DNA from: Branchiostoma belcheri
Lineage: Eukaryota
NCBI RefSeq assembly: GCF_001625305.1
Contig: NW_017802379.1
Span: 4,393,479-4,457,478, forward strand
DNA length: 64,000 bases
Direction: 5' to 3'
Below are positions 341 through 49,449 of this stretch, one piece after another (position 1 is the stretch's first letter; every line of letters starts with the position of its first letter). The notes below the pieces were generated by a model. It made no database searches and was not told where the DNA came from. It saw nothing but the letters and a program-made list of their open reading frames with translations. The position numbers and the translations under genes are program-made.

Positions 341-405
341 AAACAAACAAACAAATAAACAAACAAACAGACAGACAGACAGACAAACAAACAAAATACA
401 AGGTG
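341..405. repeat. Microsatellite (CAAA)n/(CAGA)n
   Basis: Reads caaacaaacaaacaaataaacaaacaaacagacagacagacagacaaacaaacaaa. Confidence 0.9.
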
Positions 406-1025
406 TGTGCTTGTGTCAGAAAGTAGTGCACATCTGGTATAAAAGCACAGAAATAGCTCAATAGGGAACAAGAGTACTATTTAGTTGCTTCAAAATGGTC
501 AATATTTGTAAAACGTATGGGTCAATATGTGTAAAGTGTATTTTAGAGACAATAAAAAACTGTAGGGGCAGTGCAGCAGTGAAGTACATTTGCATCAAGT
601 TAGCCAGGACAAGTGTACAGGAAAATCATGTAATATTATGGTCATCACTAGAAAGGACTATCAACATTATGGGGCAAAAGGGTCATGAATACACCAGGTC
701 ATCTTATAGAATATGCTTAGATCCCTTAATGTCATTCATAGATATGGAAAAAAAGCATCATTATTACTGACAAAGTTGCCAGGTTGACACAGTACACCAC
801 AGACAGCAAAGCATGAACGAAGTTCTGCATTTGACCAAGTGGAACATGTAAAAGGTAGTTGTACACAATGTATGTAGCCCTAACCACTGACATAGTTGTT
901 ATACTGTGCAATCCATGCAAAGAGTATGAAAAAATCTCTCCAGCATTTGTATGGGTTAGTACATGAGCAACCTTTGACCCCAAGCCTGTACACCTGAATG
1001 GAGGAGGCCTCCGTGAGGCTTGTAC

Positions 1026-1145
1026 CTGAGATCGCTCTAGATTGAGCCTAACAGACAGGCCTTCTACCTCGGCTCGCAGACTGTTGTTCTCTGCCTGTGC
1101 CTTGGAGAGGGAAGCCTGCGTTTCTGACAGGGTGGATTGACCTTG
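1026..1145 (-). CDS. CLIP-like repeat exon (40 aa), last one resolved in window
   Basis: Encodes [40 protein letters not shown]. Acceptor is ctgagcag|CAA, donor CAG|GTACAA. No stop codon, so the gene continues beyond the window start. Confidence 0.7.
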
Positions 1146-4100
1146 CTGCTCAGGAGTGGGGAGGGGGGTGAGAGAGTACAAGTTGAACTTGCCTGTTCTT
1201 ATATACACTACTATAAAGTTGCTATACAATGTACAAATAACAGTCTTTCAACTGTATCTGCCTTGAAAACTGTTAGCTGATGGTCAAGGTTTGAAGAAGT
1301 TGGGAGAAGTCATTGGTTAGGCACAGTTACTACACATGCCAGGACCAAATTATAACTGCAACACAAAAGACCATGACATCTGAGTTAAGCTTAAAAGCAC
1401 GATTCTCAGCTAATATGACACAGACATTAAGCTGACACAAGGCAAAATTTCAGGCATGAACAATTTCAGTGCTGGATCCTTTTTGTGTCACGTGCATGTA
1501 CTACAAGCACTATTGTGTTATAAACAAGACAACTACCAGGCAAAAGAAAAAATGTTTTGCTACTTGCAAATAATTTAACACACCAAGAAAATCTGTTTCC
1601 ATCACAGAGAGGCCAGAAGTGGGCTTATGCAAAGAGAAGCATGCTAGTCCACATACATGTATCAGTTAGAGAACAACAATGGGGTCACAGACAAAAGCAC
1701 AGCCACATGCACATTCAGATACATGTATGTTAGACATGACATTGTTACAGAGAACATAGAAAAAACCTTCCATGGAGTATGTTGAAATCTCTGCAAAATT
1801 ATTGCACATCATAATCAACAGGTATTCTCATCAGGATCATTAACAAATGACCTCACTGCATTATTACACTATTTGTACACAATCATTAGTAATATACAAT
1901 GTAGATTATTGTCACCTTGGTCTCACTATGTCAGTGTGTAACATAATAACTTAAGTAAAGCTACCATTTTGATTATGGCTTTCCATTGTTTTTAAGACTC
2001 AGCAATATTCACAAATTGATTTAAAATGACACCATTTGTATGGTTTTGTGATGATTTCTTTTTGCCTAAGACTTGAATCTGTATTGTCTGACTTGCTCAG
2101 GCACCTTTTGCGTTTCTGCTGCCTGGGACTTAGTAGTTTCTAGCTCAGTGTTGACATTTTGCACTTCCTTTTGTAGGTCCATGATGGTTTTGGACATCTC
2201 AAAGACTTGAGATTCTGCTTGCTGAAAGGTGAAAAAAAAATTGGATATTAAACCCAGGGTGAACAAAGAAAATACTGTTACAGATGTCATCAAATATTGA
2301 TGGTAAAATTGCACCTATATTTACCATTTGAGAATAATTAATACCCAATATGCTTAATATCCAATAATCCATACCTTCACAATGTCTGCATTCTCTTGTT
2401 TCTTTGTTTCTACATCAGTTTCTAGTTGTGTCTTTAGTGACTCCAGTTCTGTGATTTTTCCCTGCAAACTTTCAGCTTCCTTTTCCTTGTTCTGTATTGA
2501 AATAGAAATACAAACACTTATTCACATGTACAGGACTAGTGCATGTATTCCTACAAACTACAAAGTCCAATAAAGATTCATAGGGAAGTATGAGACTGTG
2601 ACAACATCACACATTTAAACATATTTAAACTTTCTGGAAGTATATGAGGGTCCTTCATGCAATCCTTGACTTCATGAATTCCCCATATGAACCTCTATAA
2701 TAATTCCTGCTGGCTTCCAGCCACAGCCATTTCCAGAGTCCTTTTGACATTTCTGCTGGTCAACCTTCCCCCACCCATGTGCTGTCAAAACTACTGTGTC
2801 CGGATAAACAAATCCACAGCAAAGCCACCCAAAACAATACTTCCAGGAAAGAAAAAAAAAACAACACAAACAATACAACTTAAGTCTTTTGATATCGAAA
2901 ATACCTGAACAATCTGTGCATTCTGTTGTTGTTTGGTTTCCATGTCTTTTTCTAGCTGTGCCTTGATAGATTCCAGCTCTTTGATTCTTCCTTGCATGGT
3001 TTGAGACTCTTTTTCCTTGTTCTGTTCAAGAAACATTGTGTAGAAAAAGAAATTAGTTGTGTAAAGTAAGGATGTTGTTGAACACATTTTGTACAGGTGT
3101 TACTTAACAGCATTGACCAACTGTCAATAGTCCCAAATTAACATTTTACAAACCTTAGAGAGTTCCACAGCCTCCTGTTGCTTGGACTCCACATTTTTCT
3201 CCAGTTGTTTCTTCACAGTTTCAAGTTCCGACAATGAGCCCTGTAAACTTTCAGTCTCTTTTACTTTTAGCTGTGGACAAGAAAATGTTAGGAAGATAAG
3301 CACTATGATTCAATTAAACAGTAAAAACTTACAGCACATTTGTCAAATCCAGCTGTAACTATACTTCTAGGAAGTGCAGAATCTGATTTATGATAATATA
3401 TGTATCAAAACTTAAGGCATGTACAGCTGACCTCTAGTTTACTGGAGAAGTCCTCCTTAGCCAGCTCCAGGTCCTGGTAAGCCTGGGCCTTCTGGGACTC
3501 CATGTCTGCGATCTTCCTCTGGAGCTTCCCAGACTCCATCTGGTATTGCTGCACAGGAAGTCAGAACACTGGTGTGAGATCTATGGCAACAAGCTATGAT
3601 GATGATGATGGAGTGAGACCATATTATTAAACTTGGCATGCTTATGCCTTGCTCTAGTTGGAACAATCTGGTAGTTTTTTCCAATATTTTTTTAAAAATG
3701 AAATACAGCCATTCACTTTGATGCTAATGTATCAACTTTAGAATTTTATTACTGGAACATGACCACTTGAGTAGCAAAACTCGCAACAGAAGCCTTGATC
3801 ATTTTACACTGGCCTTTTTACTTTCATTCTACTATGAGATTGGACGTTAGATGTTAATCTGACTATATCAGTAGCAATGTTGATGAGAGTTGAACATACT
3901 TGTTCCTTGTCCTCAGATTCCCTCTTGAGCTTCTTGAGTTCTTTTTGCATCTCCCTTTTCTGGGTCTCGGACTCGTTCAGTCTGGTCTGGAGGTCACCTG
4001 ACTCCTTCTGCCCTGCCTGGGGCATCATGGGAACAAATCATGAACATGACCACCCCATACATGTACATCAATACCATGCATCCAACAAATCTATACTTTA

Positions 4101-7100
4101 TAAATACAAATGTAAAGGCATAGAAACTTCACCTTCAGTTTTGTGTCCAGGTCACTTCTAGCTTGCTCTAAATCTGACTCCAGATCAGATTTCTCAGCCT
4201 CCAGCTCAGAGATCTGTCTGCTCAGGGCCTCCTGTTGGTCTTGAGCTTTCTAGAATGGAAACATCAGGAAGGGAAAAAATAAGGCCATGTGCTCTACAAA
4301 AATCCAACTGTCTTCAAAGTTGTTATAAAAAAGGCTGTCTTAGATCCTTGTAGGTGGTTGGTTCTGTCACAGCCTGCTTTAAAATCTATGACATATATCT
4401 ATGACATCAAAGTTGCATGACAACCTACAATGAATGTGACCTCACCCTAAAAATACAAATACAAGGTATGAAAAACATAAAATACCATAATCCTTCTTAC
4501 CTCTGCTTTTTCTTCAGAGTCTATCTTGAGTGCCTTGAACTCCTTATGGATCTTGTCCTTGTCCTCCTCCACTTTGGTAAGCTTCTTCTGCAGTTCTGTC
4601 ACCTCTCGTTCTCCTTGCTGTCAACATCATAAACAACATAGTTCCAAATTTCACTTCACTTATTTATGAGTTTTCAATGAAAATTCTTATGATCTCATGC
4701 AGTATGCATATGGTATGTGCATAAAGTATATAAGTTCATAAAGTATATAATGTATTATTACTACAACAGGGCATGTATTATTACTACCACAGGGCAGGAG
4801 ACTCGACAACATTCAGACTTCTGGGTAATCCTTGGCTTCCTGAATTCCCCCATGTCCACATTCCTGCTGGCTCCTGGCCAGATTCTGAGACCTTTCTGTC
4901 ATTCTGCATGTCAATCTTCCCCCCACCCATGTGATATCAACCTAGTCTATCCAGACAAACCCACAGCTAGCCACCCCAAACAATACTTCCATACCTAGCA
5001 GGGTTAGACAAGTCCCATTGCCCACTTGCCCAGGGCAAGTAAAAGTACTGTTCGGGCAAGTAAATATCCCCCTGCACTTGCCCGATTGGGCAAGTAAATT
5101 TTAGGATGCAAAGTATAGCCCCTGCATTATTTCGATCAAATTTTAAACAATTTTGATGAATAAAGCATCCAATAAATAAACTCTTCTATAATAAAATAAT
5201 TTCCTTTCTGCTAGTAAAATGAATAGAAATGTGTCATATTTTGGGCAAGTGAAAAGTTGGTTCGGGCAAGTGAAAATGACCAGGTACTTGCCCGGTAGGG
5301 CAAGTGGATTTTTGAAAACTTGTCCAACCCTGCCTAGAAGTTAAGGTTTCTCACCTTGGTGACCTTGTTTGTTTCAGCTTTGGAAGAGTCCAGATCCTTC
5401 TGAAGTTGGTCTCTCTCTGTTTCTGTCTCAGAGAGTTTCTTCTGAAGTTCTTCTTTCTCTGACTGAGCTTGCTGTAAGAGTGTAAGAAAACATCCACTGA
5501 ATTCATTGTACCACATTTCATTACTGGAAAATGCTTGTATTAAAATGTGAAACAACGAAACAAAATGTATCATTCAAAATTGAGACATGATATACACTAG
5601 AGAGAAAAGCTGCACCAACCTTTGTCTGGTTTTCTGTTTCCTCCTTGAACTCGTCAAACTCCTTCTGAAGATCTTCCTTCTGAGACGTGACAGTTTTGTT
5701 GTTCTTCTGTAGATCAACTATCTCCTGCTGGGCTTGCTAAAGTTCAAAATAACAACATTAACATGTAAGTAAACACTGTGTTATCTGTGACACTTAAATC
5801 AACTTTGCTATGATGGCAAGATTTTTTAGGCATTTTTGTGCTTTTTATAACACAGCTGAGTCCTTGAGTCATTTTATCTTCAAGTTGACATACCTTAAGT
5901 TTCTGGTCAGTAGTGCCCTTCAAAGCCTCGGTTCCCTTCTGCAACATGTCCTTCTCAGCTTCAAGGTCAGATATTCTCTTCTCAAGGTCAGAGATTTCTG
6001 ACTGGCTTTGCTGTAATGCAAAAAAGTACAACAGTTTAGCAGACTCTTGACATTACATTTAATCTTCTCTCCACTGCATAACCCCATAACAAGTAGAGAA
6101 TTGGTAGCCAAATGTCTACTTCGGTGTGCTAAATCTTTTAAGTAACTGTTTTTAGACTTACACTTTCTTAGACAAATGATTTTAAGATGTTCTAACCTTG
6201 GTTTGGTCTTCAGAAAGGTTCTTAATTCTGTCCAGTTCTGTCTTCAAGTTCTCAATTTCAGCATCTCTGTCAGCAACCTCTCTGGCGGCTGTAGCGGTGG
6301 CCTTTTTCTCCTCCTGTGGGAGAAACAAACACTTGTCATTACTGCACATCTTCATCTTTCTTTTTTTCAGTACAATTTTTCAACATCAAGGTCTTTCCCA
6401 TACCAGATGGTGCATAGGTGCAATGGTGCAATCTCCATTCCAATAGACCTTGGGCCACACAAGTTTGTGCAATCTAGACAGCAGGAGGCTAGTCCAATGG
6501 TATTGGTGTGTGTTCCACTCCCATACTCTTTCACAAGTGCTAAGCAGAGAAAGCAGTAGGTACCATGTTTAATATCTTTCTACCATGTTTAATATCTTTG
6601 ATATGACTCAGTCAGGGATCGAACAATCTACTAAATGCAAGGCAGACACTCCACTCACTTGGTCATTGCACTGGTTCCAATTAGTTAGCATACATGGTAA
6701 GAGATCACGGAAAAGGAAGAAAACCCCAGGTTTTAGACAGGAAAACATGCACTTCAAAGTTTATGATGAAAAATAATTGCAATATCTTACAGCTGACCAC
6801 ATTTGAAGAAGCCAGGAAAAAGTTTTCAAAAAGAAATATGACTAAAATTTAGAAACAACAGAAAATGAATACAGCCTTACCAATAGAGTTGTAGTAGCCT
6901 GAAACATTTGGTCCTCTGCCTCCTTCCTTAAAGTCTCAAAGTCTTCCAGTACTTCCTTCTTCTCTTTCTCCAGGTTAGCAATGCTCTGCAGGTAGTTGTC
7001 AGTCCTTTCTTTCTCAGTCTAAGAGAGGTACAATAGACATGTAGTTGGTGAGGTGTGTGGAACCCTATGTATGGATCTTCATTGTTCTCACTGTATCAAC

Positions 7101-10100
7101 TGTTGCTATACATGCAGTTACCACATTCTCTTTACTACTATGTCTGGATTGTATAGTTAGCAAGCAAACAAGCAACATTTTGACATTTTATGATTTAGTA
7201 TAAAAATGGTTCAAGCCATTAATACTCCAAAACATGTTTTGTGGTAAATAAGATGTAGGAAAAATCCTGTTACATATGGCCATGTAAAGAAAATTTTATG
7301 TGAAGATTCAAAAACAGTGACTGCATATAGGTTACATAAGTAACAGTTGGGAGTGATGGAATAAAGCTATATCTCAAGATGTAGACTGATACACATAAAG
7401 TACCTTTTGTGCAACATTTGTGTCTTCTTTCATTGTCTTGATCTCGTTGTTAAGTTTCTCTTTCTCGGTCTCAAGGGCTGTGATCTTGCTTTGGAGTTCC
7501 TGACTGGCTTCTTGATGTTGCTGGAGAATAAACATCAAGCAGGTCAGTAACAGAATGAACATGTTGTAGATCCCAGGTTTTCCTTTCATAAAACAAGAAT
7601 GCTGGGCTGACATCCAATCAGCACCTAGTTATGACAACACCAACCAGCCAATCAGCACCAAGGACAGGTACCAAAGCCATAGCTGAAATGACCCAATCTG
7701 CAAAATGCTGAGGTTGACCAATCAGTACCAAGAACAATGCTACCTTTTTACACCTGGAACATCATTAGCATTGGCCAATAAGCCACATGGTCTTGGAGAA
7801 GAGCAACCAATCAGCGCCAAGGTAAATACTGACCCTGACCATCACTATCGATAGCCGACACAGATGCAACTCATCATAACCTTTGATAAACCATCATGTC
7901 AAACTAATCTTTAAAAAAAGGATTATTTCAAACTTACAAAAATGAGTGAGAAGAAAAGATCGGTACTCTATTCACCTCAGTTTTCTCTTCTGTTTCCTTC
8001 TTGAAGGAGCTAAGCTCCCCCTGGACCTGTTCTTTCTCAGCTTCCACAGCCTGGATCTTCTTCTGGAGGTCAGCATTGGTTTCATCTCTTTTCTGTAACA
8101 GAAAGGCATGTGTTAGAAACTTCAACAGGACTTAAAATACTGATACCTCAGAAATGACATTACTTCACACATGGTCTTGTGTCAACAGATTTTTAAAGTT
8201 TCAAACAGGTAAGGAACAGAAAGACTAACCTTGATCTTGTCGTCAGATTTCTTCTTGGCAGCCTTCATGTCTTCTACGAGCTTCTCTTTGTCTGCCTCTG
8301 CCTTGGTGATCTTCATCTGCAGTTCTTCTCCCTTCAGTTTCTCTTGCTATTCATCAATGCAAAGAAAAACAGTCTATAATTTCATTCCCTTACTTGTGCT
8401 TTTACACAGACATCTAAGAGATAGAACAATATTATGAGTGTCTTCGTTCTTGTTGCTGATAATGTTGAAATAGATATGAGATGAAATCTAACAACAGAAA
8501 AACCTCACCTTCAGGTTTTCCTCCAGTTCTTCTTTAACATTCTCCAGTTCTTTCTGTACTTTTTCCTTTTCAGCCTCCACTTCAGAGATCTTGTTTTGTA
8601 ACTCCCAGGTCTCCTTCTGGCCTTGCTGTTTGATAGAGAGGGCAACAAAATAAGAAAAGTTGCTTCGGATATTTCCTGTTTTAACATACCAACTAATCAA
8701 CTAATATGTAAGAAGAGATCAGCTTTATGTCTATGGTGACAATTGACAAATCAACATCAAGCTACTAGCTAATCAGCAGCAAGGCCATAGCAGAGATCAC
8801 TCAATTAGCAAAATGTTGAAGTTGACCAATCAGCACCAAGGACAGAACAGTAGTAGCCACTCAGCATCAAGACCATAGCTGAGACCAGACCAGTTAGCAA
8901 CAGAAAAAAGTTGACCAATCAGCACCAAGGACAAGGACAATGTAATTGCTTGCATTGTCCAATCTGCTTCAAGGTTTTGGAAAAGGGCAACCAATAAGCA
9001 CCAAGGTAATTACTGACACTGTCTTACCTCCAGTTTTCCCTCCACCTCTCCCTTCAGCCTCTCCATGGTTTTTTGCAGGTTACTGTTTTCTGTTTCCATC
9101 TCAGCAACTCTCTTCTGTAGCTGGGCACTCTTCTTCTGTTCTAACTGTTCAGAAAGGTAAGAAACAGTTAAAACTCTCCCAGTCATTTACAACTTCCAAA
9201 CTTTTAGAACATCAACTAACTTTTTTTAGACTACCCCTTGCAGGAAAACACAGCAAATGCAGAACACAGAAAATCACCACGCAAGAAAACTAGGCACACT
9301 TACGTCAAGTTTTCCTTCATATTCGCCCTTGAATCTGCCCATGTCCTTGTGGAGGTTCAGGTTTTCTGCTTCAAGTTCTGTTATTTTAGCCTAGAATAAA
9401 AAGTACAAGAATTAGCTTACGTTGGGGGAAGGCAAAATACACCCATCTTGTAGATTCACAACTTTGTATCAAACTTTTTAACCTTCTCACTGCTGAGTAA
9501 CACAACACATAACAGCTACATTAGCATGGTGAAGGTTAATATATGGAAGCATTTTTCCCTACCTGGAGTTGTTCTCCGTCCTGTTTCTCCTGAGACAGTT
9601 TACTCTCCAGCTCCCCTTTAGTGCTGCCCATGTCCTGCTCCAGCCTTTTGTTCTCATTTTCCAGCTCAGCTATTCTCTTCTGGAGCCCCTTGATGTCTTT
9701 CTTAGCTTGCTGCAAAGACAAAGGAGATTTTAGAATACTGCATCTTCTGACATCTTTTGACAAGCCTGTACAGTAAGACTTATAGAACAAGAAATCAGAG
9801 ATTTCAGGAGGTATTTTGGGCAAACTTTGTTGTGACCTTCAAACTCAAAGACACAAACCCATAAGTCATCACTTTTCTATCCAGAAGTAACAAGACCATA
9901 AATGATACATCTAAAGTTTTAACTCACTTCATTTTTCTCCTCATACTCCTTCTTCCTCTCCTCCAGTTGTTGTTGAAGTTTGTTGATGACATCTTCCAGG
10001 TCCTTGGTCTTCAGCTGGAGTTGCTCAGACTCCTTCTGGCCTTTCTGAAAACCCAACCAATCCACTCTATTCAGTCTACATTTTCATTCAGTAACGACAT

Positions 10101-13100
10101 TGCCAAAGTGTGGGCCAGAGCAATAAATATGTCTCTGTTTTATTTTGTAAAAGGTCACCACAACTGAAGCTTATGTTCTAGAAACTAGTCAGGCTAGGCC
10201 CTGCTCAAAGACTTCTAAAAGCTTACAAATTGAAAGTCACAAAATATGACAAAGTCACAAAATATGACTATTTTAGGCTTGGGTATGGCAAACTGAGACA
10301 AATAGAATATGTACCTCCAGATTGCCCTCTAGATTACTCTTCATGTTGCTCATCTCTTCCTGCAGCTTGTTTCTGTCAGCCTCCATGTTGGATAGCTTCT
10401 TCTGGAGGTCCTCTTTCTCACGCTGTTCTTGCTATTGTCAGGGATGGAAAAATGCCTTTTAAACATAAATGCATAAATGTCTATGGTGACAACATCAAGG
10501 TGGTAGCCAATCAGCACCAAGGTCAGAGATGACATCATCCAATCTGCAAAATGTTTGGGTTGACCAATCAGCACCAAGGACAAGAACAATGTTACAGCTG
10601 AGGTTTTGCACCTATTCTATTATTCAGTATTTTAAAAAAGTTAAAATTTACAATTTCAAGTATCCCAGATATACAATTCATTCCTTTTTTTGTCATCATT
10701 GCATCTACTGGTCTTTACAGAGAAAACATGACCAACCTCTGACTTGACTTTGAACTCTTCCTTCATGATTTCGATGTCTTTCTCCAGTTTTTGCTTAGCA
10801 GCCTCCAGCTCTGCAATTCTTTTCTGCAGACCACCGCTGTCCTTCAGTTGTTGCTGTTGAAGTAAACAGGTTTCAAATCAAAGTATGTACATATGTAACT
10901 GATAGAAACTTAAACAAAGCCCAAAGCTGAAGAGCATTTGAATGGTTACAAAAGAATCATTATCTGTGTAACAGAACATGTTTTTTGTTTGTTTTTCAAG
11001 GTAATTTCAAGGTGAGATTGTGATATGACTTTTTCTTTTCAATTCACTACTCTTAACTGTATTGCTTGCATATAAATAATTTTTGGTATGAGCCATCAAC
11101 AAACGAATGGCAACACAAGGCTCTTGTTGATTTGATTTAAAAAAAAACCTGTTGCTATTTTCAAATTTACATGATACAATGATGATGATTACATGACACA
11201 TGTTCAAGACTACATAGTGATACACACTTACCTGCACATGCACAATACACCTTTGATATCATGCAAAGTTCTACATCTAATGTACAGAGATGGAAAATCA
11301 AATCACACAGGACAGCAGATTGGGAGATGAAATGGTTTTCTTTATTGGTAAAGTATATGAAATGTTACATGCTGATGATATTTCAACAGCTTACTGCAAA
11401 ACATAACTCACCAGAGCCGTGCAACTACAAATGATGAGAAAAGATGAGGGGTACAGCCATCACAGGAAGAGGAATGTAATGCCATGCAGAGATATTGGCA
11501 GAAAATAATGCACCATGCAGAATGATGATGTATTACAGCAGATGACTTCCCATCATGCATCAGGGAATGACAGAACATGCTCTGAACTGCTCCCATCATG
11601 CAATAGTGACAGAAAGGCACATCAACCAAAAGACAAAAGAACAAACCGCTGTCTTCTCCTGGACTTCTGTCTTGAAGGAGGTCATCTCTTTCTGGAGCTG
11701 TTCGCGCTCAGTCTCCATCTCAGACACCTTGGTCTGAAGCTGTTCTTTTTCCGACCTTTCTTGCTATTAGAAGGAAAATGTTTAAGAAGCTTTAATACAC
11801 AACCTGAGTATCCTGAAACACAGCGATACACCTTTTCAAAAATGAATTTTGTAGGACGCATGCTGATCCAAAGAATGCACGAAGGTGGCGATTGAATGAC
11901 GATCGTACAACATATTTGATCTGGCTCTTACATGAGTGTCATGCAAATGTCACAATGTCCATTACTAGTTTTTAAAGCCCCAGAACATGGCCATACTGTT
12001 TTGCTTCACACAATGTAATTTTACTCTTAGTCTTGCGGTTTATAACTATTATGCCTTTGCGAAAAACTGACCTCGCATTTTTGCTCCAGCTCAGTTCTGG
12101 TCTCATCGAGAAGCTGCTGAAACTTGTGGCCGTCCTCTTCCATCTCTTTGACCCTCTTCTGCATCTCTGAGATGCTTTTCTTGGATTGCTATGACAGTTA
12201 GTTAGGAATTTAATTAACTGTTATTCCTGTGTTTATCACATTTTTTGGTTATCTTGGCCTTGCTACAGCATGATGGCATACTGTATTTGTTAGCACTTCT
12301 GTATGTAGTTTATAGTGCCTTCTGTCATACAGGGTAATACGCATACATTTTTGTTATTTTGATACTATGTCATTTTGTCATGCATATGTTGTCTTAATCA
12401 TTAGATATCCTTAGCACAAGGCCTTGTGCTTGATAACTGTTTCTAAAATGCTGTAATTCCCTACTATCTTAATTATACATGTTTTTACCTTTTCCTGGAC
12501 ATTTGCAAAGTTTAATGCAAATTCAGTAATCTGAAGCTGATACAGAGTTATACAGTATGTATCACCATTGACATGCATCAACGGTTATGTTGAATTGCCT
12601 GAACATGCAGATAGTCCTGACTACACCATGAGTAGCACAAGGATGTACCTTCTTGTTCTGAAGGAGTTCCTCGGAGAGAGTCTGGACCTCTGTGCGGTGC
12701 TTGTCCTTCTCGGATTCAAGCTCCACGACCCGCTTTTGGTACATCTCTGTCTCTCTCTTCTCTTGCTGTTGTGTGTGTTCAGTGGTGATGTAGGTGTGTA
12801 CAACAAGTTGTATAACAACCACATTGAATCACAGTGAGGTCTACAGTACCTCTATCAGCTTTGTACATACAGAGTGAGTAGTTAGTCTACCTTGAACCCC
12901 TGGCTATAAGAGGCAAGCCACCGTTCACATGGTTAAGAATGGTAATTCAATACCATAGAATGATATACACAGTACATCATTGCCAAGATCAAAGTAGTCT
13001 TGTATTTCTTGGATCAATCTTGACATCCTACATTACAGGAAAAGTTAAGACAGTGCAAGTGCACCAGAGTAAGTGAGAGTGCAAAAGTCTGTGTGTGCAA

Positions 13101-16100
13101 ACTTGTTAGCTTCCTTGTCGTATCTCCTCTGTTGCCCAAGCTGAGAGAAATGGAGACAAAGCATGACAGACTGTGTTAAGAACCCAGTGAGGCAGCATCT
13201 TGAGTGTGTAGACAGTGGAAAGAGAAGACTATCCACTACCCAGGCAAGCAAGGAGAGAGTGTGTGAGGCATCCAGTGTGAGTTACTGCATCATATATGGG
13301 CATCCGGCAAGAGAGAGTGTTGTAATGTGAAGAACTGCACTTCCACCATTATAAGCTGTGCGCTACCGAATCTTAATGTTTAAAGGACCATCCCCAGACG
13401 CGTGCTGTGAGACAACACTTGCGTGCTTCTTAAAGGTACGTAACGAGGGAGAACGCACCTGCACGTTCTCCTCAGCGTCCATCCAGAACTCCTCGAGTTC
13501 TTTGCGGAGTTTGGCGTTATCGGTTTCCAGTTGGGTAGCCCGCTTTTGGAACTGCGTTGTGCAGGGGTTAGGGACAGACGGGCACAGAAACAAAAAACGT
13601 AAACACAAGGAAAGTCTTCGATAAAAAAATTTAAAACTATACGGTGAGACTTCCATGCATATCAAAGGCTATATTTTGGTGTTATATTTATCATAATTGG
13701 CCGTTTATTTTGTGTAAAAAAATAACAGCATGCAGTACATGTAGATTATATACTCCAAGATGCACCATGCAGTTGTTAGAACTTACTAAATAGGGTCAGT
13801 TAGATGGGTCAACTGTTAGATGGAATTAACTGAATAAAACGTGCGTTATCCAAAAAAAGTGTGGGACGACGAGTCAGACTGTGGTTAGAGGGGGCTCTGC
13901 AGCATTATTGTCCCGTGCAGCTGTCAATCAATCAAGCAAGCCTTAGCAACAGGACTGTTGTCATGGCAACCCACAACCTACTGTTAGGTCATTGGAGGAA
14001 GCAGTGATTCAAACAGAGACACTAATGTCAATAGCATCTCTTGGGGAGGGGGGACAAGGCTGACCTTATGCCCCTACAGGATTGACCTTGAGAGATGCAA
14101 ACCTTGGCTTTGTCCTCGGCCTCCTCCTTGAGGTGTTCGACCTCCTGTCGGAGTTTGGAGTTTTGTTCCCGCATGGCGGCGAGCCTGCTCTGCATCTCAT
14201 CACCACTGGCCTTCATGGCCTGAGCAGTGTGGATGGACAGGTCACACTCGTCATTGGGAGAGAACAACTACAGTACTACAGGCTAATACAGCCTGAAATG
14301 CGTGTCATTTTCCTTAGTGTCCCAAAATGTCTCCCTGTACTTTTATAACTTTTACAGAGGGACACAGGAATACAACAACAGCTAGTGCCAAGTTCCAACA
14401 TTTCAACACATACATTGTACTGACCCTACTAAATATCCTATGATTGTTTAAATTGTTAGATTGTTATGTCTTTTTATTGACTTGTACATGTAGATACCTT
14501 CTTATCCTAAAGTTGGCACTTTGGGATTTGGCACTGCTTGTTGTTATTTCCATAGACTACAAGATGTAAAGAGCATTCTTTTTCCTCTTGATTAAATCTG
14601 ATTTAATTTTATAGGTTTACCCGGAATAAAATGTTAGCAAGACAATGACTTAAACATGATCATAGCACAGATCATCACATGAGGCATTACTAGTATAACT
14701 CAATTACTACCACTTTGATTATCTTTGAATAAGAAAGAAAAAAGGTTGATCATTAATCCTGTGGATGAAACTGAATTAAAGTAAACATTAATCTCTCTAA
14801 GAAACTGTGCGTATGATTGGTGTGTGCAGAGACAGACATGGTGTTAGAACTGAAAACAAAATTAAACTGTCAACATACGCATGTGTTGTGTACATACAAG
14901 GCCACCATTCACTCAACACCAACCGACACATACACAGAAATCTTTCCTTTTACACTGCACATACACACTGGTACAGAAACAAGTGAACTTTAGACACATT
15001 AGGATGTAGATACACACCAGAATCACACATTTCACACTTCCACACAGTTTCCTTTCCACCTGCAGTACCACTACAGATTGCAAGGAGGAGCACATTCACA
15101 CACAGGTGAAGTGACACATGCACACATGTACCTGATTCTTGTCTTCAGCCTGTTGTTTCAGGTTCTTCAGTTCCTTCTTAAGGTTGGTGTTTTCTTCCTC
15201 CATCTCTTTGGCTTTTTTAAGAGCCTATTGGCAACAACATAACAACATGTCCCTCCTATTAAAAGTACTTTCCTTACTATAGATTTCAAGCTTTGTCAAA
15301 GAAAGATGGGTTGAAAAGATTCATGTACAGATTGGGGCATTAGGGCATTTGGGCATTTGCATCTTTTTAAAAACTTGTAAAAAAGACATTCCTTCAAATA
15401 AGTTTAACTGTAAATTCAATTTTAGGTCCTAACTGTTCAATCAGTTTAGCCACAAGAAGTACTGTATATAACATCATTTATCAAAGACATGAGTTATTTC
15501 AATCACAGTTTAATATGACAAGTAAATTCATTATTTGAAGTACATATATATGACACTTGAATAAATACAAAGCATTCTAGCCTAAGAGAAGAAATGTAAG
15601 GAAGCTGTTGTGAGTGACATCTTCACTCTATATTCTACATTTAGAAGAACTGTGCAGACTGTGTGCAAGATTTGAGTTTCCTGTGGTGGAAAATTACATT
15701 AGAGGAAGAAAACATGCATTTGAGTTAGTATCACTGTGACAGAAACAGTGGAAAGATTAGTGACAGTTACTTCTATCTAACTTAAGCAGCTTTCTGCATG
15801 CTGGTATACAGAGTGCAAGGACAGTTAGATGTGCTCTTGACTAGACAGTGAAGCTCCTGTACAAGTCTTGGAGAGAAATATGCTTTTTAATAGATCTTGA
15901 GAGACAGAAGCTGTCAGTGGTGAACAGAACATAGCCCCACATTCGGCCACCAGAAGTGCTACATTAAGACCATAGCCCCACATTCGGCTACACCATGCCT
16001 CCCAACCTTGTGTTTGTCCTCGGCTTCAGCCTTGAACTCAGCCAACTCGTCAAGGATGCTGTTGTTCTCCTCCTCCATCTCCTTGAACTTTTTCTGGGAG

Positions 16101-19100
16101 ACCTCGACAAGGTACTCCATTTCCTGGTTTTGTTAAGGAGGGGGTTAGGGAATGACAGTTGTAAGCAAGATTATCAACTTAATCCAACGTAAAGCTTGCA
16201 GAAGAAAAAAGTTCCCAAACTTCCCTATTGTCTAACATCAGAATCTTTTTGCAATACTATGTAGCACTCATGCTTTGACTGACAAATGTCCATTATTTTA
16301 TACACTTAATTTTGCAGACATCGGTACATGTATTAAGCGTTTACCTTAGCCTTGTCCTCTGCATCTGTTTTGTAGGCCTCCTTTTCTCTCCTGATGTTGT
16401 TGTTCTCTGTGTCAAGTTCCGTCACCTTCCTCTGGGATTCGTTTAGCTCGTTCTTGATGTGGTCTCTGTTTAAAACGGAAACAATTGGTCATTAAAAAAA
16501 CTTGGTACTGAAACTCTTGACACAAATTGTCATTTTCTTAGACCTAGAAAGGTAACATTTTGGGCATCTCCTTTTTTTCATTTTCTCATGTACATGTAAG
16601 TTGAAAATGGAAGATAAAAAACACAAATGTACTGAATTTTCTTCACTGTTTTCTATATGACCTATATCATTATGTTAAAGTCTTTTCCTGTCAAACTCAT
16701 CTCACAAGTAAAGCTGCCCTGCAGTCAAGCATCACTAGGGGGCTCTGCTTGCAAAATCAATAGGTCTAACACAAACGTCATGTTTTAACAATGCTGCTCA
16801 CAGTGCAGCCGGTTACAGTTGGCTGACTCATATGTTGACTTATACTCATGACTGCCATAACAGTGAAAGTCAACTTTGCCCTTTTACCAAATATGGTGTG
16901 GGCAAAGTCCAACTTTCCCTTATTTTTAAAAAGAAAGCAGCATTATTATCATAAAATGGTAAAAGAACATTGAGGTTAAATTTTCATGAATTTTAGGAAC
17001 AGACCAAGAGGGATAATTTGTCCTTTTCATAATTCCGTGACAGTGCAATTCATTTCTTAATCTTTCTGTGAATATTTTTTTCTTATTTTCTTGCCTAATA
17101 CTTCATGGTCCATTTAATAAGAATTTGAAGTTGACAGCCATACACGTATTTATGGCAAATGCAACTGCTACAATAATCACCTGTACCCATTTAACATACT
17201 TGATTAAATATTAAACATACATATTATTTCAAAGTTTAAAAAAACATATAGGCTTTTTAAGCCGCATATAAGACGTGTCTATTACACATTCCATTCTTTA
17301 GTGTTATTCTGTCTCTACAACCTACATGTACCTTGCAGTTTGCAACAAGAGTGATGTATTTTTACTAAACTATTATCTAGACATACTGGTACTGCTACAA
17401 TGACGGTGCATACTGGCAACATTTTGGTCCATTCCAACCATGGTGTATTAGCTACAAAGAACTTTATCAAATTATTAGCTAGTTGAACAAGAGCGCACAG
17501 TCATTGAATGACCTCTCTGTTTCAATTATATATCTTAGTCGAGGTAGCACCTTCTTGCATTGGTTGTGTCTGTCATACTGGCCAGACATTTTGTTTACTG
17601 ACTAACGCAGCTGTAGTTCAGTGAACTACATTTTTATGCACAAGCAGTTTCTAATTGTAGCAAGTGTGAAGCTGCTATGATGTAGTGCTTTAAGTCTATG
17701 GCACTGTGAAATGGCAGCTCTAATTCCTAAGTATAAAGACGATCTATTACCGCTGTTCTTAATTACTTTTCTACACAAATGTGATGTTCATTTTTTCTTG
17801 TCTTTCTTGTCCTTTCCCTTGAAGAAGTTCAGCTTTAGTGATTTTGAAGGTGACTTTGAGGGAGACCTTAAACCCAAAGAACACACACAATGAAACAAAC
17901 TGACAGACTTGAAAAATATTGAGCAGCGTACTTCTTGACAATGTTCGGATTCAGAACTGAATGTCACAGACTCACGTACTACTCGGTTTAATGTCAATTT
18001 TTCCCCATCATATAAGGGGTAGTAGCAGCGTATTGTATATCTAGTCCATACAAAACAATTAATAGGAACTCACATTTGTTTCTGCATCTCTGCAACACTC
18101 TGAGCTCCCAGGTCAGACTCCTGTCTGCTCTTCTCCAGTTCCTGTTGAAACTTGACCAGTTCATCTTTGGTGGCTTGGAGCTGGGGACACAAGCACAGTA
18201 CATCATGTACAAGGCAAGCAATGACTGATAATCATTAGTCAGTATACAATGGACCAATTAAGACAACTGATTGAAAAATGTGAAACAAATAAGCCAGGAA
18301 GAATTGTGCAAGATGGAAATGGCCTAGCAAGACCCAAAATACCCCATGTAACATGGTTAGAACATTTGATAGGTCAGATGTCAAATAACATTTAAACTAC
18401 ATGTATCACCACATTTAGCCTTCCAGTCACCAACAAGCTCTGAACAGAACATGAGTTCTTCAAGACATTACCTCCTCTTCTAAGGCTTTAACCTTGGACA
18501 AGGCTTCATCAGTGGCTTTCCTGGCAGACTCCTTCTCTGCTGTGACTGCATCTTTCTCCTGAATTACTTGGACAAGCTTACCCGACGACTCAGTGGCAGA
18601 GTTTAGAACCTGATTGTTGTTTCCAGAGTTTTGCGTTTCCCGCCAGACGGATATTTCAAGGGAAAGGTATGGTGGGGTGAAGTGGACGAAAACAAACAAA
18701 AATAAACAAAAAGTCAATAAAACAACATTTAAGGAAACAAAAAATGCTTTAAGTTAGATTGTTACAAGATTCATGTTATTGATTAATAAGATCTGATGTA
18801 AAATAAAATGCACACACATTATCAATAAAATGTCAAATGAAATAAAACAACATAGAAATGAAAAAAAAAATTATGTTACAAATTGGACATTTGTCCATGA
18901 TACATATGTATTAGTAGGTCTGTGTGTTAGTTTGATAAGTATAGACCTAACTAGTACACAGGTTAAATTAAACAGGGATGAAAGGAACTTAAGAAATGGA
19001 GAATTCTGGACAGCCATTAAGTTTCCACATTTAATTGGGACTGTAAAAACATCTGACTTATTCAGTTAACTGTGAAAAAAATGCTAACTTCTAGTCTTCT

Positions 19101-22100
19101 AACCTTCTCCCTGCCAATTCACTGACTGATGTTGTACAAATCAGACAGGAGAATGTTAGTAACAACGTACATCTTGTTTTTCTTGGACTGCCTTCTCCTT
19201 CTCTGCCGTGAGTTCTTGTTGCTTGGTGACGGCTGCTTCTTTCTCAGAGATGGCAGTCTCCTTCTCCAGACTCAGCTTCTGTTTCTCTGCCTCAAGCTCC
19301 GCCTTCTCGGCCAGAGCTGTTTCTCGTTCCTTAAGAACGGCCTCGTATTGGGCCCAGGCCTTCTCCTTGGATTCCTATGGAATAACACAAAGTAGTACTC
19401 ATTAAGAACAAGAAATCAGAGACTAGCAGGAACTATGCAATCCTTGGCTTCCAGAATTAACTTATGTCAACCTCTAATTCCCACTGGCTCCAGTCATTCT
19501 GTCTGTCAATCTTCTCCCACCCACTTGCTGTCAACTTACTCTGTTCAGACAGTTAGAGATAACACAAACAGTTTCAATGAGATCTCTTCTTTAGCACGTG
19601 CATGGGTCTATTTAGATTATGTAGATGTTCTACACTTGCCTTAACACACCATACATTCAAAGCATGCCAATTGAGTTACGATTACCAATTTGAAGGTTGA
19701 GCTTAAAGTAAAGCAGAAGTACAAAATCCAGAGGTCACACAAAAATGATTTTGGCATATCCCACCTTAGCTAGTATACATACTGTGTTCTTCAGCAATAA
19801 GGAATCTTGTCTCAATTTTAACATGTATAAATATCAGCTTGAGGCTTACAGGAATTACAGAAGGAGTACATTTCAAAGAAAGGGCATGCTTCAATACACA
19901 GCCAGCTGTAATTGTCATACAATACTAGTTCATTGACATGATGCAAATAGCTGTTAGTACAATGCAACAGACATATCTAATCTAGTCGGGTTGCAGGGAA
20001 GCTTACAATGGATTTCTTACAGGTAGTTGAGACCAAATACATTTTAAAGCTGTTTGCAATTTTTTTATCACCATGTTTTCAGTTTGCTGTTATTTTAAAT
20101 TTTTCTTAACATTTTTTTTAATCTTTATTTTTCTTAAGGCTTTTTGTCCATATTTTGGCTGTTTTGTTTTATTTACGATTTTTATTGTGGCTTTTCATTG
20201 TAAATTTTTATTGCTTAAGACTTTTTGTAAACAATTCTATTTTTAAACTAGATTTTGTTTTTAGGCTGTCTTTTTTGTGGACATAAAGGAATATATAGAC
20301 CTTTGAGGTCGATTTTTGCTTGCTTGGTTTATGTTATAGTTGTTTTTCTCTGATATTTATCTTTTTTTATTTTCTGTTTTGTTTGATTTACATTTTTATT
20401 GTGACTGGTCTTCCTCTCTGTAGAAATCCAAACAACAAACACATGCTTAGTAAACAACATTATTATGTTCCAATTTCATACATCATACCATCCATATTAT
20501 ATCTTTCCAACTACATTCGTCAAGTCTCTAACCCTTTAGCTTTCTTAATAATATAACCATCTCACATACCAACTTATTTTTTTGTATACCAGGTCTAGTA
20601 CAACTTTGTGTGTACTTCCACCTTAGATTGTCAATCATGTTCCTTTAACCTTTTCTCAACATCACCTATCTTTCATCTTTCCATGTTCTTTCTCTTTCCA
20701 CTGTACTTTCTCATTCTCAACCCAACAATACTAATCATCTACAGACTGTCCCTTTGTCCATCTTCAACTTCATCCTTCAACCTTATGAATCTTCTTTTTT
20801 TTATTCCTCAAATTTGATGAGTTTCGTAAGTGATTCCCTTTTGGTCTTACCTCTGGAACAAATGCATGCAATGAACAAACAAAACATAGCAGATTATTTG
20901 AAGACATGCGTATCAAGCTCAGAAACACTCAGAACTCTCGAAATTAAACCACTCTTCAAGACTTTGAATTAGCCATTATCCATTGACTTTTCTTAGTTCT
21001 TTTTATTCCTTCTTTAAATATTTTTTTTCCTGATAAGGTTTAGCCACAACATTGGCATTATCCCAGGTGTCTTTTCTCTTATCATCATCATCTTAATTTG
21101 GACATCATTTCATGTAACTTCATTTTTACCTTGTTTGTTTCTTTGTTTGTTTGTTTGTTTGTTTGTTTGAGCTTTCATTATTTTCAACATTTGTTTAGGT
21201 CTTTTTCAAGAATAGTTCTATCTTCTTTTGATGCCACACATGTTGGAGTTTCATTTTTAAACCTGCATTCTGACCACACTGTGCTTTTCCATTTCTTTGT
21301 CTCTCCATAGCATGTTTCTTTTTCCTTGAAGTACGTTTCATAGTTTTCTGAAGTTACAAGTTGAAGTTCCAGGTTAGGGAGAGTGGTTAAACTGGGTATG
21401 TTACCCTTCACCCTGCCAATACCCTTTCTTTAGGACATAAATAAATCAATCTTTCGGTAGGCTTATGGTAACCAGACCCAGTCTGTGTAGGGGAGGCTTT
21501 TCTTCCTCTCTCAGTATGTGGAGGAGGAATCAATATGTTCTCTCTCCATGTTCAAAAGTTGGTTATAAAAGAAAAATAAAACCAACATAGAATAGAAAAT
21601 TTTCACCTTTAACAGGTGGACATACACTGTCCTTAAGTGTTGATTGGATGTTGGTACTTTCCACTTTGAAAAAGTGCTTACAGCAGCACAGGGTGCATGC
21701 AGAATACTTTAACCTTCCTCCTGCTGTGGATGGATCCATGCAACAAATTTGCATTGTTTAAAGGAGGAAATCAGCAGGCAAAGGCCTAACAGCCATCCAG
21801 GTGTCAATGGGGCAGATACAGTTACGTGCAGTGCCATGACAATTGTTTGTTCAGAACATGGCAAATGTCAAAAGCCAGGGCCAGTTCCTGTCAGTCTGCC
21901 TGCATGCACATCCTGTAAGCCTCAACACTCGGGCAAAAACGCCCGTCATCTCACTCTTGGACAGAAACAGGGATTGGTAGGGGCATCTTTGGAGACGTCC
22001 TCCCTCTTGCTCCCAGTTTTAAGACCACGATCGGTGTGGCCTTTCAAAATAAAGTCACAGGACATGACTTCAACAAAGGTTCTTCGAACCCAAAATCAAA

Positions 22101-37100: not shown

Positions 37101-40100
37101 CTTCTGTAGAATATGTTGAATTTATGCATTTAAGGTTCACTGTTGAGCATCTCTCTCAGAACACAAACTACAAATTTCACCGCAAATGTAAAGGTTTTCC
37201 ACACTTCTGTTTTTGAGACAGTGTCTGTGATAAAAGACAAGGAGAGAGAAAGGGAAGCCAACATTCCTTGATGTTTTTGATGACAACCATCCTGGCATCT
37301 TCAAGGTCCTGCAGTTTCTTTTCCTTCTCCTGCAGTAGTTCCTTAAAAGAGAGTAGATTTCCGGGGGTGAGAAGAAAGGAACTTTGGAGAAGGGGTACAA
37401 AGCAGAAGGTAGAGCCAAGCAGCACTTCAGAGGACATGTAAGTGGGAATTGTTTACATGTACTATGGCTGCAAGCAGGTAGAATAGCAATATGCACACTG
37501 CAAGCTTCACATCCCACTAATCTACATGTACAGGTATAACAGCCAAGCAGTTTTACCAGACAACTGTACCTGTAACTGTACTACTCAACCAGTATAAGTC
37601 AAACATTTTGCTCTGTTGTCCTAAGATAACACACCCCTTTGCAGGCACAAGGGAAGGCCAGTTTGAATATATTTTTGTGTACTACAGTTCGTCATACATA
37701 CATGTTTACCCTATTTGTCTGACAGATTGCTGATGTTACTCAAGCAAACTTTTTTTAAAAATCCTGGAGACCTGTCAGCTAGACTATAATTGATAATTCT
37801 TTTGACACTGCTTTTATACAACTTGAGTCGTGCATGGTTAAAGGCTTTCTCTCATTACTTGGAGAGAAGCTTGTGCAACAGACAGTACCTGCATGGCGTG
37901 TGTAGAGCTTCCTGTGGATGCCCGCGTCTTCCTGGCAGCAGCACGCAGTTCCTGAGCAAAATATGACAAAAATGATGAGATGTATAACAAAAATGATGAA
38001 GTTTACAATGATTTCAAGACCAGATAAGTGTATACATTGGACAAGATATCACCTAGGCATCTCTACTTCAAAATCACAAATGTGAACCCAGAATCAGTTA
38101 TTGTTGCCCTGAAGAAGGCAACAGACTACCATCAAAACATTGGATGTGAAAACCCACTGAACACACTCTCTTGACAACTTGATGAAATTATTCACAGACG
38201 CACTGTAGTTGTACTTACAGAGTGCCTTCCATAGCCTGATGCTGAGCTGATGTTGGAACTAATGGAGCTGATGGAGCTGCTGCTGCCACTGCGAGACCTG
38301 GCGCCTGGAGTACCGAGGGGAAGGGGTGGGGGCGCTTCTGACTGGGCTTTCCTGGCTGCTATTCTGGCAGCTGTTGCAGAGCCTACAATATACGCAAATT
38401 TCAATGTTTTACTCTTGGTGGTCATTTTAGGTGGTGAATGATATCACTATACTGGATAATAGAAAAATGCATCCATATTTATATCATAGCACACTTTTGT
38501 TTCAAATCCCACCTGGTACTGAGGCTTGTTTGGGTGTTGCCTTAGGCACAGGTTCCCCCTCCCCGAGAGGCTGGACCTTGTGCACCGGAGCAAACAGGCC
38601 GAACTTGGGCTTACAGGTGAAATATCTGTCATGGAACACAGGACGAAAAAATGTTATCAACTGCAATCAAAATTCAGAGGGAAACTTTTCACTTTTTCTT
38701 ATTTTCTCTTGATGTAGACATGCATGTACAATGTATTTGTAAGTTATAGAAAGATGTAATTATGAACGTACCTTACTACAGTTTCGTATATATGCACATC
38801 ATAAAGATTAAAGTCTCTTCTTTTGGGTAGTAACTACTAAGACAGATGCCTTTGGCATTCATTTTATTGGATGCAAATAATGAAAATTCATTGTTCCCTC
38901 TTGGCTTGAAACCATATGGAGACTTGGCACTTCAGCAGCAATAGTGTGGGAGTCATAATTCAACTTAAGTAGCATTACTAAAAGGTGACATTGAAACAGA
39001 GGGAAGGAAATGACTTTCATTCTCTTATCTCTTGTACTTAACTTTGATCATGACGTTTCAGAGATGCGGTAGCAGTTACATTCCTATCTACGTAACCCCT
39101 AAACTTGTACTGGAGTGGCCCATAAGTGGCCAATGAGTAGAAAAAAAACCCTCACCTCTTCCCTGCCACAGATCCGTCGTTCTTGCCCTGTTCCTCCTCC
39201 AGCTCCACCCCGACCCACTCCCCCTTGGCGAAGTCTGTCGTCCCCAGATACCTCACCAGACCTGCCTTCGTCCCACTGACCAGGACTCGGTCACCCAGAC
39301 TGAACAGTTCCTCCGCTTTCTTCCCGATGTCTACCAGACTAGTCATGGACACGCTGGGAGTTAGAGTCCCCATGCTGGATCCCGCTAACCGCTGTTTCAG
39401 ACTGGAAGATTTCGTTGACGTTGAAAGTCGACTGCTGGGTCTTTCTGTCGATTTTGACCCGTTAACTGCGTCGCCGGCTCCTCTCGAGGCAGAGCTTGAC
39501 GCCCGTGACCTTGCAGCGGCCGCGGACGGCACGCCTGCGGCAGCTCCTGGCGCTGCAGGCTCTCTGGTAAGTTTCGCAGCCCGTGAGAACACGCCGTGCT
39601 GCGGCGTACACTGGAAGTACCGCACGCCGGCCACGGAGCCATCGTTCTTTCCCACAGGTTCGTCCAACACGATTCCGACCCACTCACCTGGCGCGAATTG
39701 CGTTTCACCGATGAACTGGATATAACCGGCCTTGGTGCCGGCAACATACGCACGATCACCAATTTTCCACCCATCTGAAGATATAACAGAAGAGGCCGCA
39801 GCCTTAGTGGTGGCGGAGGCATACAAGCCTGTAAAGTGTTGTATGCCTGTAAGGTGAGTGTGGAGAGGAGAGAAGTTGAGGGTGTAAGTACGTCATGCAA
39901 AGAAAATAGTCCCAAGACAATGTGCAATTCTTGATGATTACATGCTTGTTTACATACTGTGATCATGCATCAACAACATGTACATTTACCGTAACCTTTA
40001 GCCCACAGATGTTGCCATTAATGCCTACCAAATCTCTATGGATTAGACAGTTAGGTGAAGGTTAAAATTAAACTAAATCATTTACCTTAACATCAAACAT

Positions 40101-49351: not shown

Positions 49352-49449
49352 TCACTTGTAGTGGATGACAGAGGTGGAGAATAACAGCTTCTTTTTATTT
49401 TTGTTCTTCTTCTTCTTTCCTCCTGATGTCTGGGCTTCAGTTGATGCTT
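49352..49449 (-). CDS. RNF10: RNF10 exon 18 (terminal coding exon, stop 49352-49354)
   Basis: Encodes (E)[31 protein letters not shown]-stop. Compare the human C-terminus [25 protein letters not shown]. Acceptor is ttcacag|AA. Confidence 0.85.

Follow-up and report, generated by a model that had tools for sequence, protein, structure and literature searches.

Introduction

Proteins whose repeats are encoded one to an exon are known from nebulin (~35-residue modules), the PEVK region of titin and the collagens (54-bp exons), whose genes contain many exons of equal length and symmetric phase that were multiplied by tandem duplication, so that exon and module coincide. In a 64,000-nucleotide stretch of the genome of the amphioxus Branchiostoma belcheri (NCBI RefSeq assembly GCF_001625305.1, contig NW_017802379.1, positions 4,393,479 to 4,457,478 of the forward strand; hereafter the window, with positions counted from its first letter), we find an array built in the same way within a minus-strand gene that is the Branchiostoma orthologue of CLIP1, the gene for CLIP-170, where it would form part of the distal rod. 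In contrast to the nebulin, titin and collagen arrays, the amphioxus module is predicted to be a stuttered two-stranded coiled coil rather than an actin-binding helix, a PEVK segment or a Gly-X-Y stretch, and its host is a microtubule plus-end-tracking protein (+TIP) rather than a sarcomeric or matrix protein. We consider it highly probable that the array represents an amplified-exon CLIP1 rod, an ancient and lineage-specific coiled-coil extension. The gene itself is a known one, of which this is a variant specific to its lineage, and no new kind of system is involved.

Among coiled coils, the closest described relatives of the module are those with stutters, insertions of four residues that combine with a heptad into a hendecad (7 + 4 = 11; PMC9369452). 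The amphioxus array shares with stutter- and hendecad-containing coiled coils a non-heptad periodicity produced by 4-residue insertions in a heptad pattern, whereas its predicted stutters are strictly regular, one per 39 residues along more than 1,000 residues, and yield a coherent period of 39/11. Among CLIP1 genes, the vertebrate ones (chickadee, mammal, newt and shark) resemble that of amphioxus in their two CAP-Gly domains, Ser-rich linkers, conserved rod motifs and colinear rod. The literature that we searched contains no description of amphioxus CLIP1, of coiled-coil repeats or periods of 39 residues, or of exon-per-repeat coiled coils.

A 32-exon array encodes a 39-residue repeat

The array comprises 32 consecutive minus-strand exons running from 16465 to 1026 (Table 1), 25 of them exactly 117 bp long, which together encode 1,241 residues. 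Exons were called by enumerating minus-strand segments composed of an AG, an open frame and a GT, combined with a scan of the six-frame translation using a hidden Markov model (HMM) profile of the repeat, against which the 117-bp units score 34-54 bits. Each exon has a YAG acceptor after a pyrimidine-rich tract and a GT donor, every array intron is in phase 0, and all 31 introns contain an in-frame stop; intron lengths range from 116 to 959 nt with a median of 305 nt. On the array strand of positions 1-17000, segments consisting of AG, 117 open nucleotides and GT occur 44 times, versus 4.6 +/- 2.2 in shuffled sequences. The initial annotation of this DNA had reported at least 27 such exons between 12765 and 1026, and all 27 lie where it placed them (23 of 117 bp and one each of 147, 87, 138 and 120 bp), each a multiple of 3 in length and phase 0 at both ends, with 1,061 concatenated codons open; five further units lie upstream. 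Tandem Repeats Finder returns no DNA-level tandem repeat over the array because the units are too diverged at that level, and we found no credible open reading frame (ORF) on the plus strand over the array.

Most of the exceptions to the 117-bp length still follow the logic of the repeat. The lengths of units 12 and 13 add up to two standard units (147 + 87 = 2 x 117), the intron between them having slid by 30 nt. At unit 32, a tandem NAGNAG acceptor (GAGCAG, 1145-1148) offers 120- and 123-bp versions of the exon that are one Gln apart. Part of the array also appears in a public B. belcheri protein record, XP_019614194.1 (LOC109462141), whose first 71 residues correspond to units 26 and 27 joined as predicted (69 of 71 identical; window matches at 3900-4025 and 3462-3551). 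Its start ATG sits in the intron before unit 26, and it takes in unit 26 and 30 residues of unit 27 before continuing into unrelated sequence that is absent from the window; it is therefore probably a chimeric or fragmentary gene model.

Every symmetric exon encodes one repeat, as had been proposed: 26 units align without gaps at 39 columns, with the consensus QxxxExxxLQKxxxExExEKxxLxxExxxxKxExExKxK. The typical exon ends named by the initial annotation recur (Q is first in 16 of 27 units, K or E last in 22), and its 39-residue consensus is right at the other positions and off by one at the conserved E/D, which occupies column 26, column 27 being L/M. When the concatenated protein is compared with itself, identity at a lag of 39 residues reaches 30.3%, versus 10.2 +/- 1.0% in shuffles and 12-13% at heptad lags, and it persists at 31%, 28% and 25% at lags of 78, 117 and 156. 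The 39-residue unit therefore repeats at the level of sequence, beyond what coiled-coil composition in general would give.

The hydrophobic columns of the repeat are 9, 13, 16, 23, 27, 30 and 34 (mostly 59-96% hydrophobic, column 34 at 44%), with 38 and 6 weaker, and column 20, where a core 'a' position is expected, holds a conserved K or N. From columns 9 to 34 these positions follow a 4-3-4-3 heptad pattern, and a 4-4 step (30 to 34 to 38) then closes the unit, which therefore consists of five heptads and one 4-residue stutter. The hydrophobicity power spectrum of the array agrees, with a single sharp peak at 3.545 (39/11) of power 18.3, against a median of 0.06, and essentially nil power at 3.5 (0.1 at 7/2); this is the single stutter per unit that had been deduced from the length of 39 residues. 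The peak lies at 3.47-3.50 in the non-repeat part of the same protein and in the Ptychodera, ostrich and squirrel rods.

When column 9 is taken as d and column 13 as a, opposite charges pair between g and e' positions, K/R12 (22 of 27 units) with E17 (23 of 27) and E/D26 (22 of 27) with K/R31 (24 of 27), a pattern that would match the needs of a parallel in-register dimer. The array contains no proline in its 1,241 residues, 45% of which are E, K or Q, and for the exon alignment AlphaFold predicts a single unbroken helix from residue 2 to residue 38, with a predicted local distance difference test score of 96 (monomer). At the textbook helical rise of 0.1485 nm per residue, the array has a predicted length of ~184 nm, or 5.8 nm per unit.

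Several columns outside the core, Q10 (23 of 27 units), E17 (23 of 27) and K31 (22 of 27), are conserved as much as core columns, and this raises the question of whether the units, instead of being a passive spacer, serve as partner-binding sites spaced at ~5.8 nm, much as tropomyosin or nebulin bind along actin. Their spacing (39 x 0.1485 nm = 5.8 nm) is close to both the actin subunit repeat, ~5.5 nm, and the tropomyosin period, ~39-40 residues, and binding of F-actin by the N-terminal domain of CLIP-170 has been reported (PMC9062740). However, the conserved charges at g and e form the opposite-charge pairs that a parallel dimer needs without any ligand, the spacing is mismatched to the 4 or 8 nm tubulin lattice, and the unit has no homology to known binding repeats in Pfam, PDB or NCBIfam, its matches being to generic coiled coils. 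We thus regard periodic binding as very unlikely. Profile searches of the array against the same three collections returned no specific family for the unit; we rejected the matches to intermediate filament, SMC, GCN4 and BICD proteins as homology, as they are generic, sub-threshold coiled-coil similarities.

The array lies in the CLIP1 gene

The gene extends on the minus strand from a start codon at ~41037 to beyond position 1 of the window. For database searches we used a working model of 2,136 residues, in which the exon boundaries between 38.5 and 19.4 kb are approximate, which leaves our conclusions unaffected. The best 120 matches of this model are all CLIP1 or CLIP2 proteins, with a top E-value of 1.5e-123, and a single colinear BLASTP high-scoring segment pair joins model residues 5-1127 to residues 6-1176 of CLIP1 from Ptychodera flava, as it does to residues 5-1135 of ostrich CLIP1. 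The predicted protein carries two N-terminal CAP-Gly domains with the GKNDG motif, which Pfam CAP_GLY (PF01302) matches in two stretches at 2.4e-52, and its N-terminal region is ~50% identical to CLIP1 N-termini; the CAP-Gly exon was also located by tblastn with CLIP1 fragments. The N-terminal motif of exon 1 agrees with other CLIP1 proteins, exon 1 ends in the same phase as bird exon 1, and the end phase of the CAP-Gly exon agrees with that of its bird counterpart. For the C-terminal zinc knuckles (tandem CCHC) and ETF tail (PF16641), tblastn with Ptychodera and bird C-termini gave nothing significant within the window.

Origin, age and distribution of the array

The exons immediately upstream of the repeats identify the source of the array. 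We obtained the bird exon structure by mapping the chickadee (Poecile atricapillus) CLIP1 protein onto its own genomic locus (L001), and three consecutive amphioxus exons of 138, 107 and 121 bp, with phases 0-0, 0-2 and 2-0, equal bird CLIP1 exons 18, 19 and 20 in both size and phase. The 122 residues encoded by exons 18-20 align between amphioxus and bird without a gap, with 27 identities (z = 5.6 against shuffles), and the last of the three amphioxus exons, unit 1 of the array, aligns to a single segment of Ptychodera CLIP1. In birds, as in vertebrate CLIP1 generally, the LEEERSVLNNQL exon comes next after exon 20, and the Ptychodera protein has the same order, whereas amphioxus interposes at least 31 exon-20-like units. 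Since sizes and phases are the same as those of bird exons 18-20, the simplest history is that the array arose by tandem amplification of the exon-20 orthologue, with most of that exon copied into the downstream phase-0 intron.

The copies have diverged extensively. Paralogous array exons have a mean pairwise identity of 47% in DNA and 27% in protein, and their flanking introns cannot be aligned. By codon position, identity is 47.5%, 60.4% and 34.1% at positions 1, 2 and 3, against chance levels of 31%, 39% and 29%, and even the closest unit pairs have a synonymous divergence (dS) above 1 or saturated, with ratios of nonsynonymous to synonymous divergence (dN/dS) of 0.14-0.45. The saturated dS, low dN/dS and divergence at position 3 together show that the array is old and that purifying selection has preserved the pattern of its sequence as well as the precise length of its exons.

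These figures also bear on a rival view, in which the units would be pseudo-exons in decay or an assembly artefact and contribute nothing to protein. In favor of such a view, the public protein libraries that we searched yielded no array-containing protein. Yet all 32 frames are open despite saturated synonymous sites, codon position 3 is far less conserved than positions 1 and 2, dN/dS is low, every splice site is intact, and two units are kept in a separate B. belcheri record, so that we attach next to no probability to it. An assembly artefact in particular was rejected because copies that are only ~47% identical at the nucleotide level are not collapsed or expanded haplotypes.

Outside amphioxus, the organization of CLIP1 is different, as the initial annotation had supposed for vertebrates. 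Bird coding exons are heterogeneous in size, from 33 to 2187 bp, and vertebrate rods show heptad periodicity (3.49-3.51) with no lag-39 signal. We sampled the rods of 12 orthologues, from three passerines (including isoforms of 2,173-2,189 residues), ostrich, squirrel, newt, shark, a hemichordate, two oysters, abalone and a nemertean, and these show heptad lags alone, with a lag-39 z of at most 1.2 and just scattered matches below 10 bits to the repeat profile. A search of 1.84 billion representative proteins with the 39-column profile found no second array of this kind; its one related sequence was XP_019614194.1, the rest being unrelated bacterial, metagenomic and repeat proteins. A word-indexed search with the 1,061-residue array returned 8,000 candidates, none of them significant, from a list probably saturated by low-complexity words.

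Birds nevertheless offer one parallel, as a phase 0-0 insertion in the distal rod makes their long CLIP1 isoforms (2,173-2,189 residues) hundreds of residues longer too. In contrast to the amphioxus array, this insertion is one giant 2187-bp exon (positions 31397-33583 of the Poecile atricapillus CLIP1 locus, L001), which supplies the extra ~730 residues of the 2,177-residue isoform as ordinary heptads (peak 3.51) with no internal repeat, and it enters three exons upstream of the position of the amphioxus array. The two are independent routes to a longer rod; in the sequences sampled, two chordate lineages have thus lengthened the CLIP-170 rod independently, one by an exon array and the other by a giant exon.

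The amphioxus gene offers an unusually clean natural case of the growth of a fibrous protein by tandem exon duplication, with a founder that can be identified because its size and phase are those of vertebrate CLIP1 exon 20, and with copies that are ancient yet retain their exact length. A 39-residue unit is 'register-neutral', so that units can be gained or lost with the coiled coil left intact, and the length of the CLIP-170 rod appears evolutionarily free to more than double.

Predicted structure and possible splicing of the extended rod

Our preferred explanation begins with an ancestral 121-bp exon that would have duplicated in tandem into the phase-0 intron that followed it, leaving at least 31 extra symmetric exons, each encoding what would be one 39-residue alpha-helical module of five heptads and a 4-residue stutter. 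Joined in series, these modules would form a parallel, two-stranded and proline-free coiled coil of 1,241 residues (~184 nm), placed between the CAP-Gly heads, which bind microtubules, and the C-terminal tail, and given its uniform 39/11 periodicity such a rod would be less supercoiled than a heptad rod. All or most array exons are probably spliced into the mRNA. The extension would make the spacer that separates the microtubule-binding head from the cargo-binding or autoinhibitory tail longer and possibly softer. This bears on whether the rod of CLIP-170 is a mere spacer and hinge for head-to-tail autoinhibition, and a rod of more than 1,000 residues with coherent 39/11 periodicity would suit the study of how stutters affect supercoiling and stiffness.

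Several observations weigh against this explanation. Two 93-bp units (31 residues) and the final 120-bp unit are off the 39-residue register. The C-terminal exons fall outside the window, and it is colinearity that suggests that the array rejoins the CLIP1 tail; inclusion of the exons in mRNA is likewise indicated by open frames, splice signals and purifying selection, and the dimeric state, parallel orientation and stutter geometry are predicted from sequence alone, through its a/d and g-e' patterns. Finally, a full-length amphioxus CLIP1 protein with the array was found in neither of two protein libraries, a gap that could arise if public gene models omit the exons or if the libraries or their filters miss the protein.

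The same architecture might instead constitute a bank of cassette exons, from which variable subsets would be spliced into CLIP-170 rods differing in steps of 39 residues (~5.8 nm), as the initial annotation proposed; this agrees with the exon anatomy but claims more about function. Every array intron is in phase 0, every exon length after unit 1 is a multiple of 3, and the hydrophobic positions are identical in every 117-bp exon; since these exons share their starting heptad position as well as phase-0 introns, any two of them can be joined with frame and register kept, and the constancy of register adds strength to the proposal. Many CLIP1 isoforms are predicted elsewhere, among them X29 in Ostrea and those with the optional 2187-bp exon of birds, and in titin (PEVK) and nebulin, exons of similar size in long arrays are subject to differential splicing. 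However, units 12 and 13 (49 + 29 residues) restore register only if both are included, which suggests that their intron slid amid constitutive co-splicing, the 31-residue units encoded by 93 bp are not register-neutral, and splice sites are good throughout. Purifying selection acts on all units, as expected of regularly translated exons, although this is compatible with skipping as well. On balance we consider a cassette bank possible but doubtful. The more specific idea that the array is an exon-encoded molecular ruler, in which regulated skipping of 5.8-nm segments would tune the reach or flexibility of CLIP-170 between tissues, seems to us unlikely; if true, it would mean that splicing adds and removes 5.8-nm segments of the rod with frame and register undisturbed. 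In a weaker version of this idea, a 1,241-residue extension may simply be absent from current public amphioxus gene models.

Tandem homologous exons of equal length are also the hallmark of mutually exclusive clusters of the Dscam type, which the amphioxus array resembles in this respect, and were the array such a cluster, each mRNA would carry one or a few units and the rod would keep a normal length with varied sequence. Such clusters, however, differ from the array on several counts. A repeat search of positions 1-17000 turned up a single inverted pair, which is weak (27 nt, 81% complementary) and has one of its arms beyond the array, so that complementarity of the docking and selector kind is not evident, and the sole intronic repeat family is found in three introns, in one orientation throughout. 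The introns (116-959 nt) are too long for steric exclusion and allow adjacent exons to be spliced. An mRNA with two units would also escape frameshift and nonsense-mediated decay, because the length of each exon is divisible by 3. One unit is split across two exons, the 147- and 87-bp pair, which makes sense with neighbor-to-neighbor splicing alone; in other species, a single unit that runs straight on from the founder exon occupies the orthologous position; and units 26 and 27 are joined in the Gnomon model XP_019614194.1, which is a prediction rather than a transcript. With the usual enforcing features lacking (no complementarity, a shortest intron of 116 nt), we rejected mutually exclusive splicing, to which we assign only a slight chance, and retain the amplified-exon rod as the best account of the locus.

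Coordinates, intronic elements and neighboring genes

The exons of the amphioxus gene on which the above rests are listed in Table 1.

Table 1. CLIP1 exons in the window, in order of transcription
Feature	Coordinates	Strand	Length and phase	Remarks
CLIP1 coding exon 1	40842..41037	-	ends phase 1	start Met; approximate boundary; from ORF and donor score
CAP-Gly exon	39156..39846	-	phase 1 to 2	CAP-Gly 1, Ser-rich linker and first part of CAP-Gly 2
Exon completing CAP-Gly 2	38513..38625	-		tblastn and translation; 3' boundary uncertain
Non-repeat rod exon	19171..19374	-	204 bp, phase 0-0	positional counterpart of bird exon 16
Rod exon	18472..18609	-	138 bp, phase 0-0	orthologue of bird CLIP1 exon 18 (138 bp)
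Rod exon	18074..18180	-	107 bp, phase 0 to 2	orthologue of bird CLIP1 exon 19 (107 bp)
Unit 1	16345..16465	-	121 bp, phase 2 to 0	HMM 25.7 bits; bird CLIP1 exon 20 orthologue, probable founder
Unit 2	16007..16123	-	117 bp, phase 0-0	HMM 41.3 bits
Unit 3	15132..15224	-	93 bp	31 residues, without first 8 residues of unit; HMM 23.8 bits
Unit 4	14103..14219	-	117 bp	HMM 43.4 bits
Unit 5	13459..13551	-	93 bp	87 bp via alternative donor 13465; found by HMM scan alone, 20.3 bits
Unit 6	12649..12765	-	117 bp	
Unit 7	12072..12188	-	117 bp	
Unit 8	11647..11763	-	117 bp	
Unit 9	10737..10853	-	117 bp	
Unit 10	10315..10431	-	117 bp	
Unit 11	9928..10044	-	117 bp	
Unit 12	9563..9709	-	147 bp	full unit and first 10 residues of next
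Unit 13	9304..9390	-	87 bp	remaining 29 residues of unit begun in unit 12
Unit 14	9028..9144	-	117 bp	
Unit 15	8509..8625	-	117 bp	
Unit 16	8230..8346	-	117 bp	
Unit 17	7976..8092	-	117 bp	
Unit 18	7404..7520	-	117 bp	
Unit 19	6881..7018	-	138 bp	46 residues = 39 + 7 (one extra heptad); HMM 17.7 bits
Unit 20	6197..6313	-	117 bp	
Unit 21	5894..6010	-	117 bp	
Unit 22	5620..5736	-	117 bp	
Unit 23	5355..5471	-	117 bp	
Unit 24	4501..4617	-	117 bp	
Unit 25	4133..4249	-	117 bp	
Unit 26	3900..4016	-	117 bp	95% amino acid identity in B. belcheri XP_019614194.1
Unit 27	3432..3548	-	117 bp	first 30 residues 100% identical in XP_019614194.1
Unit 28	3154..3270	-	117 bp	
Unit 29	2905..3021	-	117 bp	most similar pair with unit 30 (74% nucleotide identity)
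Unit 30	2375..2491	-	117 bp	
Unit 31	2105..2221	-	117 bp	
Unit 32	1026..1145	-	120 bp	degenerate; last visible exon before window end; HMM just 6.8 bits

The introns of the array contain several dispersed elements. One, of ~93 nt and rich in CCAAT/ATTGG, has the core CCTTGGTGCTGATTGGTCAAC on the gene strand and occurs at 7644-7736, 8752-8844, 8910-8950 and 10490-10599, lying 60-130 nt upstream of the exons that begin at 7520, 8625 and 10431; its core is present in five copies, all in one orientation, where chance would give none. This element may be a transposable element or the relic of a later duplication of an exon together with its intron. The intron between the exons at 5471-5355 and 4617-4501 holds an insertion at ~5010-5335 that resembles a miniature inverted-repeat transposable element. 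Its ends carry inverted repeats, CAGGGTTGGACAAGT ... ACTTGTCTAACCCTG, and its interior a direct repeat of 70 nt in which GGGCAAGT is abundant (family D6). A dispersed repeat resembling a short interspersed nuclear element (GGAAGTATTGTTTGGGGTGGCT...GGAAGCCAAGGATT...) lies in array introns at ~2640-2850 and ~4800-4990, with a partial copy upstream at ~19440-19480. Rfam identified no RNA families in the window.

Two further genes appear to flank CLIP1 on its upstream side. On the same strand, at ~49000-55300, a neighbor encodes a C3HC4 RING finger (54174-54452; Pfam 4.7e-9) and by eye resembles RNF10. In human, RNF10 and CLIP1 presumably both lie at 12q24.31, and the presence of an RNF10-like neighbor beside CLIP1 in amphioxus may represent conserved linkage. 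On the plus strand, open frames between 57800 and 59000 (such as 58229-58495 and the Pro-rich 58504-58947), which have no Pfam match, look like exons of another gene.

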